Positions 10,378 through 26,435 are shown, numbered from the stretch's first letter. The stretch: DNA of 54,790 nt from Patescibacteria group bacterium (GCA_028703305.1 JAQVNC010000001.1:1-54790); one strand, 5' to 3'. The notes: generated from the letters alone by a model not told the origin. A program made the numbers and translations.

Positions 10378-11886
10378 TTAATTATTTTTTAAATAAATAT
10401 AATTCATTAAATTGCGCTCATACCATTTTTTGTCCGCTATTATTTTTTCCTTTTTGTTAATCCAGGCGGACCAATCAGACTCTCCGGCGCCCGAGCCGGG
10501 ATAATAGACTTTATCTTTAAGCAAGCCTTCGGCTTTGTATCTTTTTATGAGCTGGAGCACGTCCGGAGACAGCATCGTTAATTCATGTAATTTTATCCGC
10601 GATCCATTCAACTCGGAAAGTTTTACGTTAGCGCGCAGTATAAACTGTTCAACTGGAAAAATTGCGATTAAACCATACATGCAGACAAATAATATAATCA
10701 CAAATTTAAATATATTTGATCGGTTTTTAACAAATAATCTTGAAATTAGCCAGATAAATAAAATGACGCAATAAATAACCGTGTATGAAGCAAATAATTT
10801 TTCATAGCTGAAGCCATAATAAGTTACATAAAGCTGCATTCTGTGGGCGGCCGAAATGAGCAATAAAAGAGAAGCGAACGTGAAGACCGTCAAAATTCTT
10901 TGCACAATTAAAATAGTTTTTCTGTAAGTAAAAAAATAAATTATTATATTTATTATTGATAAACAGAACAATTGCCAAAAGCCGCTTTTTACAAATTGTT
11001 CCGTGTCCTTGAATTCAAAAGGCAACGAACCGACCCAGAGGCGCCCGACTTGCACCCAAAGAAAAAGCAAATAAATAATTAGGATGCCGCCTAAAACAAT
11101 GCCCGAAATAATGGGGTCAATTTTGTAATTATTTTCCTCTTTCTCCCGGTAATCAAATTTTTTATTCCAAGCAAAAAGCATTGAAAACATTAAAACCGAT
11201 AAAATTATTGAGGCAATAATTTTGTAGATAAATATAAGCGAAACATGCGCATTGATCCAGCTGTAAATAAACTCCGTTTTACCGGAAAACACTTTATCGG
11301 CCGATGATAAGAGAGGGATTATAACGGTTAGAGAAATGATTAAAAATAAAAGAATGCCGGCGGCGACTTTCGCGATTATTCTTTTTTTGTTTTTACCAGC
11401 GGGGATAATTAATTCTATATATAAAATTGCCGCTAAGCCGATTTTGCTTAAAAAAGAAAAAAACCTTTTTATCATTTTAAATAAAAAATAAAAATCCCAA
11501 TGCCTAGCCTCTTTATTTTCTAAGCTTAGATAGTTGTAAAAAAACGCAAAAATTACCGGCAAAATTAATAGGCTGATAATTTTCAGAAACGGATTGTCGT
11601 AGATTAAAAAACTTAAAATTATTGAAAAAATCGGGGCTAGCCAGATTAAATCATTTATGCTGAATTTTACTTTTTTATAAATAACCCCAAAAAATAAGCC
11701 GCCAAAAAGAGACAGAAAAATAAAATAATTAATTCCCAGGGCGTAAATTCCCTTCTGCCAAAACCCCCAAATAAAAATAACCCAAAAAATGGCCAGGCCG
11801 GCGCATAAAAGCAATCGTTTGGCCGATGGCTTGGCCGGACTGATTTCTTCACTATTATTTTTTAAATTTTCGTTAAAATTATTCAT
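10378..11886 (-). CDS. large polytopic membrane protein (DUF4153/DUF4173-like)
   Basis: 502 aa with more than 10 predicted TM helices; family name uncertain. Confidence 0.5.
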   Translation of the reverse strand: MNNFNENLKNNSEEISPAKPSAKRLLLCAGLAIFWVIFIWGFWQKGIYALGINYFIFLSLFGGLFFGVIYKKVKFSINDLIWLAPIFSIILSFLIYDNPFLKIISLLILPVIFAFFYNYLSLENKEARHWDFYFLFKMIKRFFSFLSKIGLAAILYIELIIPAGKNKKRIIAKVAAGILLFLIISLTVIIPLLSSADKVFSGKTEFIYSWINAHVSLIFIYKIIASIILSVLMFSMLFAWNKKFDYREKEENNYKIDPIISGIVLGGILIIYLLFLWVQVGRLWVGSLPFEFKDTEQFVKSGFWQLFCLSIINIIIYFFTYRKTILIVQRILTVFTFASLLLLISAAHRMQLYVTYYGFSYEKLFASYTVIYCVILFIWLISRLFVKNRSNIFKFVIILFVCMYGLIAIFPVEQFILRANVKLSELNGSRIKLHELTMLSPDVLQLIKRYKAEGLLKDKVYYPGSGAGESDWSAWINKKEKIIADKKWYERNLMNYIYLKNN

Positions 11887-11977
11887 ATTTTTAAAATATT
11901 ATTTAATTAAATAATAGCAAAATAATTGGAATAAATCAATAAAAAATAACCTTGGTGAAAGGTTATTTTTATAGATG

Positions 11978-12049
11978 GGTGGCTACAGGGAATTGAACCC
12001 TGGTATCTAGGACCACAACCTAGTGTTCTACCATTGAACTATAGCCACC
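11978..12049 (-). tRNA. tRNA-His (GTG)
   Basis: Cloverleaf; anticodon loop TTGTGGT; extra 5' G(-1) opposite C73; T-arm CAGGGTTCAATTCCCTG. Confidence 0.9.
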
Positions 12050-12122: not shown

Positions 12123-12644
12123 TTAAATTAGCTGTTTAACGGCTATTTTGCGCGTTTGCCAGAGTAAAACCGCTTCATACGCGCCAACTAACACGCCGGT
12201 ATAGAATAAATCGCCGAGCAAGCTGTTTCTGAAAAATGGAATGGCCATATAATAGCTTTGCATTAAGCCGGCTATAGTATGAGGATAAAGCGAGCCAAAC
12301 GCCCAAACCGCGGCGTTGGTAATTAGATAAAACATCATACTGCCCAAAATCGTTCCGCCTAAAACCGTACTTAATTTTTTATTTTTTCTGACCATTAAAC
12401 CAATTAAACCCATGATAATAAAACCGGCGTAGACCGACAGCATAATCGGCCAAGTGTAAAAACCGATAAACAAGTCGCTAAAAAACATAGCGGCTAAAGG
12501 CAAAACAACCGCCCATTTTTTCGGAAGATACAAGCCGGAAAAAATCGCGATGGCGCCGATGGGCGCGAAATTGGCCGGGTGCGGCAAAAATCTGGCCGCG
12601 ATGCCTAAGGTGATTAAAATAAAGACTGGCAGATACTTTTTCAT
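12123..12644 (-). CDS. DUF6580-like putative vitamin transporter (ECF S-component-like), last gene of the riboswitch operon
   Basis: 173 aa with 5-6 TM helices; N-terminus MKKYLPVFILITLGIAARFLPHPANFAPIGA typical of this family (from memory). Confidence 0.6.
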   Translation of the reverse strand: MKKYLPVFILITLGIAARFLPHPANFAPIGAIAIFSGLYLPKKWAVVLPLAAMFFSDLFIGFYTWPIMLSVYAGFIIMGLIGLMVRKNKKLSTVLGGTILGSMMFYLITNAAVWAFGSLYPHTIAGLMQSYYMAIPFFRNSLLGDLFYTGVLVGAYEAVLLWQTRKIAVKQLI

Positions 12645-12672
12645 AAAATTATATTTATAATTTAATTATAGC

Positions 12673-14733
12673 CTAAAAATCAAGTAAATTCAAAATATAT
12701 CTAAAGCCTCTATAAATTAAGTGTCCGGCCAAGGCTAATATATTCTCTTTGGGCGCGGACGGACTGGCCGACGGCGCTTGAACAACATTATTAACAGCCG
12801 AGACATTCTCCGGCCGTGCTATTTCTTGGTTTTGTTTTTTTGCTATTTTTTTACTCCCCGCATTTTTCGGCTCTAACAAAATTATTTTCTCGGCTAAAAC
12901 TTTTGGCTCTAACGGCTTAATCGGTTCAGAAAAAACATCAGCGGCTTTTTCCACTTCCGGCTCAACTTTTTCTTCGGCTTTAACTTGGAGCATATCTTCA
13001 GTACTGCTGGCCGTTAGTAAAATCTCCAGCGTTGAAGTGGCAATATCTGATATTTCCAAAGTTGAAGTGGCAATATTGCTATCGCTTATATCGGCCCGGC
13101 CAAAAGAATCAAAAACAGCTGTTTTTTCCTGTTTGGAAAAACTTTGCATAATATTAAACCATGGCTTATTCTGTGCCGCCGGAATGGCATAAGCGGTTGA
13201 CCAAATGCGGTTAGCTTCATAGGCATTGTCTTTTTCCAAGCCGCCGTCAACTCCCTGGCTTAACGCCAAATAACTTTCCGGCGTATTATTATTTTTTAGC
13301 CAGCTACCCGCGTTTTCGCCCAAAGCCGCGATTGCCTGCATAACCCAAGCGGTGGCATAAGTATTGCCATAGCCGCCATCAATGCCTTGCGCGTTAAACA
13401 AAAAATTTCTGGCTTTTAGCAAAGCCGCGGCAACGCCATCAAGCGATGGCAATGGCTCTAGCGCCTGAATTGCCGCGGCTGTTAAATCGGCGCCGCCGAA
13501 TGAACCATCGGCTTGCTGTTTTGTAATCATAAACTCAACGGTTTTTTTTATCATTTCATCATCAGCGCCATAACCGGCTTTATTTAAAACCAAGAGCGCG
13601 AAAATGTCATCATTATATAAAGAAGCGTCGCCAAATTGTCGGCCATCATATAAATCAGTAATTTTTTTTATGTAATTTGTCTTAACGCCGTCATAAGGGC
13701 TGATATTTAATGACATTAAGGCTATGGCGCGGCGCGCGTAATCAGATACTAAATTCATACCCGCAACCGCGTCCGGGTCGGTTAATAAATAATTTCTGGC
13801 TTTTTGGCCGGCAGAACCGTTCGGATTGGCCGAAGCTAAAGCTATGGTTGACCAATCGGTTTGCAAAGCCGATCCGAAAGAGCCGTCCGCGGCTTGCTTG
13901 GCAATTAAAAAATCTATGGCTTTGCCTAAATCAATTTTTGGCTTTAATAAAGGGGCGGCCATGGCGCTACCACCCCCGCCTCCGCCGGACGCGGCCGGCA
14001 AAATTACGCTGTTATTATTGCTTGGTTGATTATCGTCATTGCCATCGTCATTAACCGGAACTTCCTGTGCTGTGATAGTAACGCCGTCGCTATCAATATA
14101 ACCTGTCTTTTTGCCATAAATTAAAACCGGCACCGTGGCGGTAGCAATATACTCATAAACTCCGCTGGTATTTTCCGCGTCTAAACCGCCTATAACTAAA
14201 GTGCTGGAAGCCGCCAGGGACCAAACCGGATTCCAGCTCGCGTCCAAACCAAATTGTTCTAAAGTAATAGTAGAAGTGGCATTAACATAAGGCGCGGCAT
14301 TATCCGTGGAAATTTTTAATGGATTAATATTGTAGGTTAATAATATTTTTTCGCCATCGGAAAGCGTGTGCTTATTTAAAGCCGCCGACCCATAGTCAAG
14401 ATTGCTAAACCACGCCCAATAAACTCCGTTGCCCGCGTCATTATTTATATAACTGCCGATGGAATTTAAAAATACATCATCGCCCCACCAGCTCCAATCG
14501 CTTGCCAGCCCTGATTGCTCAACCGCGCATTTAGCATTAACCGAAGTGGTACTGGCGCTTTGGCTATCAACGCAAGCGGTGACGGCAATATCGGCGTCAT
14601 ATAAAACAGCGTCATGAGTTTTAACTTGCAGCCTAATCGTCGTAGTGGCCGTGTCGGCTTTAGCCTGGCCGGCCATTAGAAAAAAGCCAATTGAAATTAT
14701 TATAAAACTTAGCTTAAAAAGATTTTTTTTCAT
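12673..14733 (-). CDS. secreted DUF4430-like beta domain plus prenyltransferase/squalene-oxidase-repeat (alpha/alpha toroid) protein
   Basis: 686 aa; signal peptide; N-terminal domain ending DGEKILLTYNI; poly-Gly linker; repeated QxADGSFG / GIDGGYG motifs; hydrophobic C-terminus. Confidence 0.7.
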   Translation of the reverse strand: MKKNLFKLSFIIISIGFFLMAGQAKADTATTTIRLQVKTHDAVLYDADIAVTACVDSQSASTTSVNAKCAVEQSGLASDWSWWGDDVFLNSIGSYINNDAGNGVYWAWFSNLDYGSAALNKHTLSDGEKILLTYNINPLKISTDNAAPYVNATSTITLEQFGLDASWNPVWSLAASSTLVIGGLDAENTSGVYEYIATATVPVLIYGKKTGYIDSDGVTITAQEVPVNDDGNDDNQPSNNNSVILPAASGGGGGGSAMAAPLLKPKIDLGKAIDFLIAKQAADGSFGSALQTDWSTIALASANPNGSAGQKARNYLLTDPDAVAGMNLVSDYARRAIALMSLNISPYDGVKTNYIKKITDLYDGRQFGDASLYNDDIFALLVLNKAGYGADDEMIKKTVEFMITKQQADGSFGGADLTAAAIQALEPLPSLDGVAAALLKARNFLFNAQGIDGGYGNTYATAWVMQAIAALGENAGSWLKNNNTPESYLALSQGVDGGLEKDNAYEANRIWSTAYAIPAAQNKPWFNIMQSFSKQEKTAVFDSFGRADISDSNIATSTLEISDIATSTLEILLTASSTEDMLQVKAEEKVEPEVEKAADVFSEPIKPLEPKVLAEKIILLEPKNAGSKKIAKKQNQEIARPENVSAVNNVVQAPSASPSAPKENILALAGHLIYRGFRYILNLLDF
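13023..13082 (-). repeat. 2 x 30-nt in-frame tandem repeat
   Basis: GTTGAAGTGGCAATAT at 13031-13046 and 13061-13076; encodes SNIATSTLEI / SDIATSTLEI. Confidence 0.8.
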
Positions 14734-15232
14734 ATTTCCATTCTATAACGTCGCCATTTTTTAATTTATAATTTGATATTCCGACCGGCGACAACTGGCC
14801 ATTAACATAATACAACCAATTTTCTCCGGCCGGATTATTTTTTAAGCCATTAATTTCTTCCACAAAAAAGCCCAGCCCGGAATAATTTTTACCCGCAAAA
14901 TTAATTTTGTTCTCTTGTTTTAAAACTTCCATCAGCTCGTAAGCCGAACCGCCAGCTTTAATTTTAGTTTCATATTTAGTGCCGCTGATTATCATGACGG
15001 CTTTAATTTTTTCTTCAACAGGCGTTTCAGCTTTTTCACCCCCTTTATTAAAGGGAGCCGGGGGGATTTTATTTTTTTCAGGCGCGATAGCATTGGCTTC
15101 AACTGGTTCACTTTGTTTTTCAGCCACAACCGGCCGCTCGTTTTTTTCTTGAGTTAAAAAAACCGCCAAACCGCTGGCCAGGGCTATTAGCAAAAATAAA
15201 ATAAAAATAATAATTAAATTTTTTGTTTTCAT
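14714..15232 (-). CDS. membrane-anchored DUF4430 (transcobalamin-like beta domain) protein
   Basis: Start reset to ATG 15232 (MKTKNLIIIF...); C-terminal WLYYVNGQLSPVGISNYKLKNGDVIEWKY; 20-nt overlap with the next gene. Confidence 0.7.
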   Translation of the reverse strand: MKTKNLIIIFILFLLIALASGLAVFLTQEKNERPVVAEKQSEPVEANAIAPEKNKIPPAPFNKGGEKAETPVEEKIKAVMIISGTKYETKIKAGGSAYELMEVLKQENKINFAGKNYSGLGFFVEEINGLKNNPAGENWLYYVNGQLSPVGISNYKLKNGDVIEWKYEKKSF

Positions 15233-15235
15233 AAC

Positions 15236-15259
15236 AAAAAACCTGCTTCTCAAAGCAGG
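15236..15259 (-). terminator. riboswitch expression-platform terminator
   Basis: Minus strand CCUGCUU-UGAG-AAGCAGG plus U6, ending 3 nt before the AUG. Confidence 0.7.
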
Positions 15260-15305
15260 AAATATAAAAAATATTCTTTCTCTGCTCGGAGAAATATCTA
15301 AAATA

Positions 15306-15382
15306 ATCAGCATTCTGGCTTGTCCCCTAGGGGCATTACAGCTGCGGCACAGCGCCTCGAATCGCACGAGGACTTTCCTGAT
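15306..15382 (-). promoter_or_regulatory. cobalamin riboswitch aptamer (short, AdoCbl-variant/Cbl-II-like)
   Basis: P1 AUCAG/CUGAU; CCUCG-UGCGAUU-CGAGG; GCUGUGCCGCAGCUGUAA core; AAGCCAGAAUGC B12-box-like; parallels the btuB leader core. Confidence 0.8.
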
Positions 15383-15466
15383 ATATAAATTATTTACTCT
15401 GTTAAATTGAACTATTATTTAGCAAAGTAATTTTACTATAACAAATTTTGAAAATTAATCAACCTG

Positions 15467-15538
15467 TGCTCCCGGGGGGAATCGAACCCTCATCGCGGCC
15501 TTAGAAGGGCCTTGTTCTATCCATTGAACTACGGGAGC
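15467..15538 (-). tRNA. tRNA-Arg (TCT)
   Basis: Acceptor GCTCCCG/CGGGAGC; anticodon loop CTTCTAA; T-arm GAGGGTTCGATTCCCC. Confidence 0.85.
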
Positions 15539-23677: not shown

Positions 23678-25166
<1,489 letters not shown>

Positions 25167-25232
25167 CTAGGGAGATTTTTCGGTGAATAATCGAAAGAGT
25201 CGACCTTTATTCGCAAGAATAAGGGAAAAGAG

Positions 25233-25254
25233 TTAGCGCCTGTTAGTACTGAAA
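25233..25254 (+). other. 16S processing-stem 3' arm
   Basis: TTAGCGCCTGTTAGTACTGAAA, complementary to 23541-23562. Confidence 0.75.
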
Positions 25255-25371
25255 TATAAAGAAAATAAACAAATAGTTTTATGGGTCTATTTGTCCCCCT
25301 CCGCTAAAGCTATGGAGGATAAATCATAAAAAGACTGGTCCTAAACTATTTGGTATCAGTCTTTTTATTTA

Positions 25372-25445
25372 GGGCATGTAGCTCAGCTGGTTAGAGCGCC
25401 ACACTGATAATGTGGAGGTCCCAGGTTCGATTCCCGGCATGCCCA
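25372..25445 (+). tRNA. tRNA-Ile (GAT)
   Basis: Acceptor GGGCATG/CATGCCC; anticodon loop CTGATAA. Confidence 0.9.
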
Positions 25446-25507
25446 CCCTCCTATGCTCTTCCACTTCGTTTCAGAGCTTCGGAGGACAAGCCATTATAGG
25501 ATTGTCT

Positions 25508-25744
25508 ATGTATTATGTTTATATTTTATTTTGCTCGGACAGAACTTATTATATAGGGTTAACTGAGAATATTAAAAAAAGAATAGTACAACATAAAAAC
25601 AGTTTAGTTGGTTATACAAAATACAGATTGCCAGTTAAGGTTGTTTGGATAGGAATATTCAAAAATAAAAAAATTGCGGCTAGTTTTGAACAATACTTAA
25701 AAACCGGATCTGGCAATGCATTCTTTAAAAAAAGATTAGTTTAA
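25508..25744 (+). CDS. small GIY-YIG nuclease-family protein
   Basis: 78 aa from ATG 25508: MYYVYILFCSDRTYYIGLTENIKKRIVQH; the track ORF start at 25412 runs through tRNA-Ile. Confidence 0.8.
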   Translation: MYYVYILFCSDRTYYIGLTENIKKRIVQHKNSLVGYTKYRLPVKVVWIGIFKNKKIAASFEQYLKTGSGNAFFKKRLV

Positions 25745-25781
25745 TTCGCTAAGCTTGCGATACGAAGCTTTAGCGTAGTAT

Positions 25782-25857
25782 CGCGGGGTAGAGCAGTTGG
25801 CAGCTCGCCAGGCCCATAACCTGGAGGTCGCCGGTTCAAATCCGGCCCCCGCAACCA
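25782..25857 (+). tRNA. tRNA-Met (CAT), initiator type
   Basis: 5' CGCGGGG with C1xA72 mismatch; anticodon loop CCCATAA; CCA encoded. Confidence 0.85.
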
Positions 25858-25950
25858 TCCTTCACTCCTCCGTTTCACTTCGGAGTTACGGATGGCAAGC
25901 CGTTATATTTTAGGGCTTGCCCTCCATAGCTCCGCAAGGAGCGACGGAGA

Positions 25951-26025
25951 GCCGGGGTAGCTCAGTGGTAGAGCAAATGACTGAAAATCATTGTGTCGTG
26001 AGTCCGATTCTCACCCCCGGCACCA
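25951..26025 (+). tRNA. tRNA-Phe (GAA)
   Basis: Acceptor GCCGGGG/CCCCGGC; anticodon loop CTGAAAA; CCA encoded; unusual T-loop TCCGATT. Confidence 0.8.
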
Positions 26026-26039
26026 TTATCAATTGAACT

Positions 26040-26110
26040 CGGGCTGTCGTATACCGGTAGTACGCATGCTTTGGGAGCATGTTGACTGGGTTCAATTCCC
26101 AGCAGCCCGA
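26040..26110 (+). tRNA. tRNA-Pro (TGG)
   Basis: Acceptor CGGGCTG/CAGCCCG; anticodon loop TTTGGGA; T-arm CTGGGTTCAATTCCCAG. Confidence 0.85.
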
Positions 26111-26202
26111 CAAAATTTCGTGAGGCCTTTATGGCCTTAGAAATTTTTGTTTGGTTGATGGGCGGCAGCGAATCCAGCGTGTCGGAGTGGGGCTTCCGCC
26201 CC

Positions 26203-26222
26203 TTCAATTCCCAGCAGCCCGA
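26203..26222 (+). repeat. exact 20-nt copy of the tRNA-Pro 3' end
   Basis: TTCAATTCCCAGCAGCCCGA is identical to 26091-26110; no matching 5' acceptor strand upstream. Confidence 0.9.
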
Positions 26223-26363
26223 CCCTACTTCGCCAAGGCTTCGTAGGACAAGCCGCCATAATTAGCGGGCTTGCCCGCCGTAGCTTTTGCGACAGCAAAA
26301 GCGTATTTCTAATTTGCGACATTTAGCGGGCTTGCCCGCCGAAGCTCGCAAAAGCGAGCGTAG

Positions 26364-26435
26364 GCGGGTATCGTATAGTGGCTTTTATGCTAGCCTTCCA
26401 AGCTGGAGAGAGGGGTTCGATTCCCCTTACCCGCT
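26364..26435 (+). tRNA. tRNA-Gly (TCC)
   Basis: Acceptor GCGGGTA/TACCCGC; anticodon loop CTTCCAA; T-arm AGGGGTTCGATTCCCCT. Confidence 0.9.

Follow-up and report, generated by a model that had tools for sequence, protein, structure and literature searches.

A J1/3-less class-II cobalamin riboswitch predicted to switch off a transcobalamin-like B12 capture and uptake operon in a Patescibacteria group bacterium

The definition of class-II cobalamin riboswitches used here, together with the standard helix nomenclature, is that of an earlier treatment of the family (PMC7367189). In the Cbl-IIa type the J1/3 internal loop forms a second T-loop that is a key determinant of selectivity, and a class-II form with no J1/3 has been described by Polaski et al. 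for Enterococcus faecalis (PMC6158498). Class-II members differ greatly in the ligand they prefer, and this preference cannot be predicted from sequence (PMC6158498). Among corrinoid riboswitches generally, a repressing type represented by metE has been distinguished from an activating type represented by cobT (PMC10327014), with the P. megaterium metE riboswitch repressing at the level of transcription by a logic that was shown by mutagenesis (PMC10327014). The core of the E. coli btuB leader, quoted in a first-pass annotation of the DNA studied here, has a match in each of 5,426 complete E. coli genomes, with 100% identity in the records listed, and falls inside the annotated cobalamin riboswitch upstream of btuB. 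A literature search combining Patescibacteria with cobalamin riboswitch found no paper.

The DNA analysed, referred to below as the window, is a stretch of 54,790 nucleotides from a Patescibacteria group bacterium (GCA_028703305.1 JAQVNC010000001.1:1-54790). It carries on its minus strand an element that we take, with a probability of roughly 80%, to be a class-II J1/3-less cobalamin riboswitch acting as an OFF switch on a three-gene, transcobalamin-like operon for B12 capture and uptake (Table 1). The 77-nt RNA from 15382 to 15306 singled out in the first-pass annotation agrees letter for letter with the minus strand, and each of the RNA elements listed there was found in its place when checked against the sequence. 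The promoter-like site lies between an upstream tRNA-Arg gene and the aptamer.

Table 1. Coordinates of the riboswitch, its expression platform and the genes downstream, numbered from the first letter of the window.
Feature	Position	Strand	Detail
Promoter-like TTGATT-16 nt-TATAGT	15435..15462	-	TG before -10 box; consensus scan only
Cobalamin aptamer core	15306..15382	-	sequence, RF01482 alignment, covariation, leave-one-out model
P1/P3 AUCAG/CUGAU	15382-15378:15310-15306	-	closing helix, 5 bp
J3/4 GAAAGU	15377-15372	-	
P4 CCUCG/CGAGG	15371-15367:15359-15355	-	hairpin CCUCG-UGCGAUU-CGAGG 15371-15355
L4 UGCGAUU	15366-15360	-	T-loop-like
P5 CUG/CAG	15352-15350:15344-15342	-	
L5 UGCCG	15349-15345	-	
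P6 proximal CUG/CAG	15341-15339:15317-15315	-	
P6 distal hairpin CCCC-UA-GGGG	15333-15330:15327-15324	-	
J6/3 AAUG	15314-15311	-	
Core segment GCUGUGCCGCAGC	within aptamer 15306..15382	-	as named in the first-pass annotation
B12-box-like segment AAGCCAGAAUGC	within aptamer	-	first-pass label; present
P13 hairpin UUUCUC-CGAGCA-GAGAAA	15277..15294	-	arms 15294-15289 with 15282-15277
L13 loop CGAGCA	15288-15283	-	complementary to L5, A15286 bulged
L5-L13 kissing pairs	U15349-A15283, G15348-C15284, C15347-G15285, C15346-G15287, G15345-C15288		
Predicted antiterminator	15246..15294	-	ligand-free fold; 15294-15289:15251-15246, 15287-15282:15258-15253, 15280-15277:15262-15259
Intrinsic terminator CCUGCUU-UGAG-AAGCAGG + U6	15236..15259	-	hairpin 15259-15242, U6 15241-15236
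Gene 1	14714..15232	-	172 aa; N-terminal membrane anchor, disordered linker, DUF4430 (Pfam E=5.9e-19)
Gene 2	12673..14733	-	686 aa; overlaps gene 1 by 20 nt
Gene 3	12123..12644	-	173-aa DUF6580 membrane protein (Pfam E=5e-50)

The element contains a four-way junction P3-P6 with the conserved core (a GGAA-like J3/4, a T-loop in L4 and the B12 box AAGYCNG with J6/3), an L5-L13 kissing loop that joins aptamer and expression platform, and an association with genes of B12 metabolism or transport, the last seen both in the fold of the first gene product and in the placing of the element upstream of DUF4430 in 78 of 92 sources. In keeping with class II, the P2 loop-stem-loop is absent between P1 and P3, the P6 hairpin is short and the aptamer measures 77 nt, and the earlier view of a Cbl-II type with no large peripheral extension was upheld in that there is neither a P2 arm nor a P7-P11 region and the best Rfam match is RF01482. 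The J1/3 T-loop of the Cbl-IIa type (env8 type, RF01689) is lacking in both the window and the family consensus, P1 and P3 being continuous and abutting J3/4, while the architecture of the Cbl-IIb or E. faecalis type (RF01482), a class-II core in which J1/3 is absent or is a short paired or mismatched stretch and P6 carries a short hairpin, is present. Judged by its sequence, the element is a J1/3-less class-II cobalamin riboswitch, and this architecture fits RF01482 as the best match.

A scan of the whole window at the Rfam gathering thresholds gave no riboswitch match, and a permissive local scan found RF01482 (AdoCbl, clan CL00101) at 38.3 bits (E=9.5e-6) against a gathering score of 50, which is an operational threshold and not a biological feature. 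The match above threshold that the first-pass annotation had proposed as a test was thus not obtained for the window. The match covers 15394..15266 and therefore spans the aptamer and the next hairpin, with most of the score lost through the deletion of P1 in the alignment, a helix of 12 bp in the model and of 5 bp in the window. RF01482 was the top match within the clan for the window and for six related genome loci. Cobalamin-clan matches lay just upstream of the gene in seven of 11 Patescibacteria genome loci, and four of these seven reached the curated cut-offs, three with RF01482 (L001 at 52.4 bits, L007 and L008 at 54.7; cut-off 50) and one with RF01689 (L004 at 41.5 bits; cut-off 36.5). 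None of the 20 closest metagenomic relatives reached an Rfam cut-off, nine of them being listed at 33-44 bits and the others not at all. The window element is too divergent for the standard database cut-off.

Homologous leaders were collected through the DUF4430 protein with no use of the RNA, and this protein-anchored search gave 91 homologous DUF4430 loci, 11 from Patescibacteria genomes and 80 metagenomic, making 92 sources with the window. A covariance model (R1), made from seven leaders whose structure was written by hand, found one match per source in 78 of the 92, always upstream of the gene and on its strand, with exactly one in the window. Among the 14 sources with no R1 match, about ten have contigs that end too near the gene (a count from the locus tables), and L010, L011, L077 and L088 have ample upstream sequence in which R1 found no match. 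With a second model (R2) built from 59 leaders and excluding the window, the window element scored 103 bits (E=4.9e-23 over the whole 54.8 kb), which is near the top of the score range of the family; the next-best match in the window reached 8.1 bits, so the element is unique within the 54.8 kb. All core positions that are invariant in the family are intact in the window. The P1/P3 helix has 5 bp only, its AU-rich continuation being weak (three non-pairs are marked in the model alignment), and close relatives likewise have short P1 helices. Conservation in orthologous leaders, the alternative criterion named in the first-pass annotation, was found both in the 78 of 92 sources and in the covariation of the helices. 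These comparisons argue for a genuine cobalamin-clan riboswitch, homologous to known cobalamin riboswitches, and for its membership of a Patescibacteria subclade that has a short P1, L5 UGCCG and L13 CGAGCA and is missed by curated cut-offs. Extra hairpins occur between P1 and P13 in L009 (2519-2676) and L002 (2375-2592) and an insertion inside L4 in L091 (1146-1303), the aptamer core in these loci tolerating peripheral insertions.

Across 68 distinct leaders, 91.2% of cells at paired positions held standard pairs, compared with 66.8% after shuffling and at most 50% with slid partners, and changes on both sides were seen at 23 of 26 pairs. These included all nine pairs of P1, three of four in P4 and all three in distal P6, while both pairs of P5 alternate (U-A 44 and A-U 24; G-C 63 and C-G 5), the middle pair of proximal P6 is G-C in 42 leaders and U-A in 24, and all five pairs of P13 are compensatory. 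Because the 68-leader alignment had been fitted to the model, covariation was retested on 22 diverse cores aligned by MAFFT with no structural information. From these RNAalifold recovered P1, P4, P5 and P6 in its proximal and distal parts, and compensatory changes were seen at 13 of 16 pairs.

The UUUCUC/GAGAAA pairing reported earlier is present and is no spare hairpin, as it forms P13 with the loop CGAGCA that kisses L5 UGCCG. This exact combination of L5 and L13 occurs in 66 of the 78 matches. Leaders with L5 CCCCG have CGAGGG or CGCGGG in L13 (L003, L055, L078); therefore two positions change together, U-A to C-G and G-C to C-G. When the kissing loop was scored as a pseudoknot its five pairs held in 98.8% of cells, and since the variant class is small, few evolutionary events lie behind this covariation. 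In three further leaders (L041:195-380, L059:1035-1260 and L079:1240-1450) L5 reads UCAGG and the CGAGCA loop is absent, the downstream hairpin having the loop CCAAAGA or CCAACGA, with which GG:CC and UC:GA kissing pairs are possible; the loop and 3' arm of that hairpin are complementary to the loop of the next terminator (AUCCUGC...GCAGGAU plus U7). These three leaders may constitute a third co-varying variant of the kissing loop.

The expression platform is conserved along with the aptamer. In 61 of 64 distinct leaders a hairpin with a U-tract behind it comes 11-68 nt after P13. In the window the terminator named at first pass, 15259..15242 plus T-run, was reported independently by a simple terminator scan. 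The window hairpin has a predicted energy of -8.5 kcal/mol and its U-tract ends 3 nt before the AUG at 15232. The 5' half of the terminator contains the complement of L13, typically GCUCG or CUGCU, and L13 with its flanks shares a complementary run of at least 6 nt with this half in 50 of 61 leaders, and with the 3' half in four of 61; the longest run with the 5' half averages 6.5 nt, compared with 4.1 nt for shuffled 5' halves. In folds from P13 to the terminator, with energy predictions that ignore tertiary structure and co-transcriptional folding, the terminator was missing from the free minimum free energy (MFE) structure in 32 of 61 leaders and formed in 55 of 61 when pairing of L13 was forbidden to mimic the kissing loop. 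A clean in-silico switch was given by 28 leaders including the window, where the terminator went from 0 to 100%. The free MFE of the window segment 15301..15236 (-17.3 kcal/mol) corresponds to the antiterminator, and with L13 blocked P13 forms together with the terminator 15259-15242 (-14.9 kcal/mol). In the closest relatives, with L13 flanked by UUCUU/AAGAA, the free MFE already includes the terminator, so that an antiterminator there would have to act kinetically or co-transcriptionally.

The first long open reading frame begins a median of 9 nt past the terminator hairpin, within 15 nt in 41 of 58 leaders, and the 3' arms of the terminators are purine-rich (AAGCAGG, GGAAAGA, AGGCGGG and similar). 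In the window AGCAGG in this arm, 9 nt before the AUG, is the only Shine-Dalgarno (SD)-like element, as had been pointed out at first pass, and the 16S rRNA of the window ends in GGAUCACCUCCUUUCU, a canonical anti-SD. The median 9-nt spacing to the start codon makes this overlap a conserved family feature, and because of it the terminator 3' arm would double as the Shine-Dalgarno sequence.

The steps of the mechanism can be proposed from that of the family. Binding of a corrinoid in the four-way junction P3-P6 would allow L5 UGCCG to kiss L13 CGAGCA, with the A bulged, and the kissing loop would lock the weak P13 hairpin. The freed CCUGCUU would then pair with AAGCAGG to form the terminator, with U6 ending just ahead of the AUG, and transcription would stop; in any mRNA that was read through, the only SD-like element would be buried in the terminator stem. 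In the ligand-free RNA, L13 and both P13 strands would pair with the terminator region as an antiterminator, permitting read-through and leaving CAGG (15245-15242) of the purine-rich 3' arm unpaired for the ribosome. In this scheme L5 and the terminator would compete for L13 and for the strands of P13, an aspect absent from the first-pass annotation. By this analysis abundant B12 most likely silences the operon through early termination of transcription, and repression by B12 is the expected physiology for an operon of B12 capture and uptake. As the same logic has been shown for P. megaterium metE, the riboswitch mechanism is one that is already known.

Control by the same aptamer might be essentially translational, with the hairpin hiding the SD-like AGCAGG and termination playing a minor part. 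The start a median of 9 nt after the hairpin and the 3' arm exactly at the SD position would suit such control, for which env8 and btuB, acting on the ribosome binding site (RBS), are examples (PMC10327014), but the U-tract found after the hairpin in 61 of 64 distinct leaders is needless for SD masking alone and the hairpin satisfies the criteria of a simple intrinsic-terminator scan, making a purely translational switch unlikely. The two modes can coexist, and the earlier suggestion of B12-dependent termination and/or RBS masking agrees, as a prediction, with the terminator in 61 of 64 leaders and the 9-nt start spacing; it is plausible that termination and SD masking both contribute to control. 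Other arrangements were considered and set aside. P13 with the U6 at 15271-15266 was rejected as the regulated terminator, the U-run being unconserved in relatives and P13 alone reaching only -4.6 kcal/mol, and P1 was rejected as the switching helix, the conserved alternative pairing being that of L13/P13 with the terminator. An ON switch was likewise discarded, as P13 and the terminator are compatible with no mutual exclusion, which fits the repressing metE type and is unlike the activating cobT type.

The sub-threshold Rfam score and the P1 of 5 bp could also mark a decaying or non-functional riboswitch relic, whose terminator would be a constitutive attenuator or belong to the tRNA-Arg gene. 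This is very improbable given the intact invariant core positions, the 103 bits against the model of its relatives and the short P1 that close relatives also have; moreover, the complementarities of the kissing loop and of the antiterminator are both intact in the window, and a terminator that was always active 3 nt ahead of the AUG would keep a conserved operon silent.

The predicted 217-aa open reading frame at 14714-15367 runs through the riboswitch RNA, and its GUG start is made of the last base of the P4 5' strand and the first two bases of L4. Were this frame a real gene starting at GTG 15367, the RNA-like features would be coincidental, and it is true that in the window the frame stays open over the 186 nt that precede the ATG and that several database homologs have been called longer than about 190 aa. 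Of 55 leaders, however, 35 have an upstream frame that closes short of L13, the median open stretch being 45 nt, and variation in the region tracks base-pair covariation and not codons. Homologs align from MKTKNL at ATG 15232, and the membrane anchor (a helix at residues 3-27 with which the AF2 model opens) is the first structural element, so that a coding origin of the region has a probability close to nil. The 217-aa gene was rejected on the unconserved frame and the homolog starts, and the true start of the first gene is ATG 15232; that the frame reads straight through the RNA, as remarked at first pass, reflects an over-extension that is unconserved as coding sequence. The DUF4430 homologs P0005, P0014, P0029, P0035, P0040 and P0070 are called at 217-257 aa as against about 172-190 aa, which suggests that other assemblies, too, contain frames over-extended into the riboswitch.

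TCN proteins end in a DUF4430 domain (PMC4350170). The DUF4430 domain of gene 1 was modelled by AF2 with pLDDT above 90 and matched the beta-domain of human transcobalamin (5no0) with a target TM-score of 0.84 and an rmsd of 1.9 A, the next fold matches being bovine and rat transcobalamin, haptocorrin and intrinsic factor. On this model the gene 1 product folds like the transcobalamin beta-domain. A DUF4430 profile search of the PDB gave no match. Gene 2 encodes a signal or anchor helix, a beta-rich N-terminal region with a weak DUF4430 match, a confidently modelled alpha/alpha-toroid at about residues 265-530, a disordered tail and a C-terminal helix, with weak Pfam matches to SQHop_cyclase_C, DUF4430 and Cobalamin_bind, and many of its homologs carry PF01122 (Cobalamin_bind) and PF14478 (DUF4430). 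Its AF2 toroid matched terpene cyclases, complement TED and transcobalamin about equally (E~1e-5 to 1e-7), and a sequence search of the PDB returned only marginal squalene-hopene cyclase matches. The fold search, meant to reveal a specific kinship with the transcobalamin alpha-domain, gave only a generic alpha/alpha-toroid, and since the three fold groups score alike the result is compatible with a link of gene 2 to transcobalamin but not diagnostic of one. The NCBI label 'terpene cyclase/prenyltransferase repeat' for such toroid proteins is probably misleading in this context. From its context only, the DUF6580 protein is a candidate transporter component.

Of 91 loci, 70 have a relative of gene 2 after the DUF4430 gene, and DUF6580 lies downstream in nine of 11 loci having 3-kb flanks; in L010 and L011 DUF6580 comes directly after the DUF4430 gene, with the toroid protein missing between them. 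An NCBIfam search of the operon gene products gave nothing useful, a literature search gave nothing informative on DUF6580 or DUF4153 and the window ORFs that were scanned included no B12-dependent enzyme. The operon (12123-15232, minus strand) resembles a transcobalamin taken apart into an anchored beta-domain, a protein combining a DUF4430-like region with a toroid, and a DUF6580 protein. It is conceivable, at slightly under even odds, that these genes form a previously uncharacterised B12-scavenging system (a 'split transcobalamin' with a DUF6580 permease), widespread in Patescibacteria and controlled by a divergent class-II subclade that lies below the Rfam cut-offs at least in the 20 closest relatives, in which case gene 2 would encode a large surface protein whose toroid might be the counterpart of the transcobalamin alpha-domain.

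Several other features of the window were recorded. About 70 nt separate the aptamer from a tRNA-Arg(TCT) gene on its upstream side (15466-15538, minus strand), and nine related loci (L001, L012, L013, L015, L016, L018, L019, L027 and L029) likewise have a tRNA ahead of the riboswitch. Sub-threshold matches to RF04354 (Plastid-ycf2 5' UTR) of ~39-41 bits, antisense to the upstream tRNA in L001, L012, L013, L015, L016, L018 and L019, are almost certainly a tRNA-like artefact of that model. A tRNA-His gene (11977-12048, minus strand) interrupts the gene string, with DUF6580 on one side and DUF4153 on the other, the latter encoding a 502-aa membrane protein (10378-11886) downstream of the tRNA-His on the operon strand, and no DUF4153 relative was seen in the flanks of the related loci. 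The region 23678-26435 contains a 16S rRNA gene (1,489 nt), which shows several deletions when compared with the bacterial model, and behind it a cluster of five tRNAs. Since the entire window gave no match to 23S or 5S rRNA, the rRNA genes seem to be unlinked.

For annotation, these results move the start of the first gene to ATG 15232 and add an RNA element that pipelines working at Rfam thresholds overlook, both in the window and in each of the 20 closest relatives. The predicted riboswitch provides regulatory evidence that these reduced-genome, largely uncultured bacteria sense and import corrinoids, and it points to a probable B12 role for the DUF4430, 'terpene cyclase/prenyltransferase repeat protein' and DUF6580 families. 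The architecture and mechanism of the RNA are already known, and no new question of riboswitch biology is opened.

Set beside the described systems, the window element shares with the E. coli btuB riboswitch (RF00174, Cbl-I) a parallel core (GGGAA / UCCAG-UGCGAAU-CUGGA / GCUGACGCGCAGC / GGUAAGG in btuB, with the B12 box) and a connection to B12 uptake, but btuB has a P2 arm and a large P7-P11 extension of P6 and acts mainly on translation. With the env8 HyCbl riboswitch (RF01689, Cbl-IIa) it has in common a short class-II aptamer, a bulged kissing loop and, as a prediction for the window, regulation of a downstream RBS, whereas Cbl-IIa has the J1/3 internal loop that the window lacks. As in P. 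megaterium metE, an L5-L13 kissing loop is predicted to stabilise P13 so that the terminator forms; metE, however, has a large class-I-type aptamer and a contiguous 5-bp kissing loop where the window has a minimal aptamer and a bulged A, and in the window the loop bases of L13 and the P13 5' arm also join the predicted antiterminator and the terminator abuts the start codon. The closest likeness in architecture is to RF01482, the type of the Enterococcus faecalis eut locus, classed as Cbl-IIb. Both have a continuous P1/P3 with no J1/3 T-loop, a P4 closed by a T-loop-like L4, a short P5 whose L5 has 5 nt, a P6 capped by a short hairpin and a P13 hairpin that kisses L5 through an L13 containing CGAG. 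The window differs in its P1 of 5 bp against the 12 of the model, in L5 UGCCG against the UCCCG consensus with L13 changed to match, in J6/3 AAUG and in its genetic setting, lying in cis to genes for B12 binders whereas the RF01482 type is found at the ethanolamine-utilisation locus.
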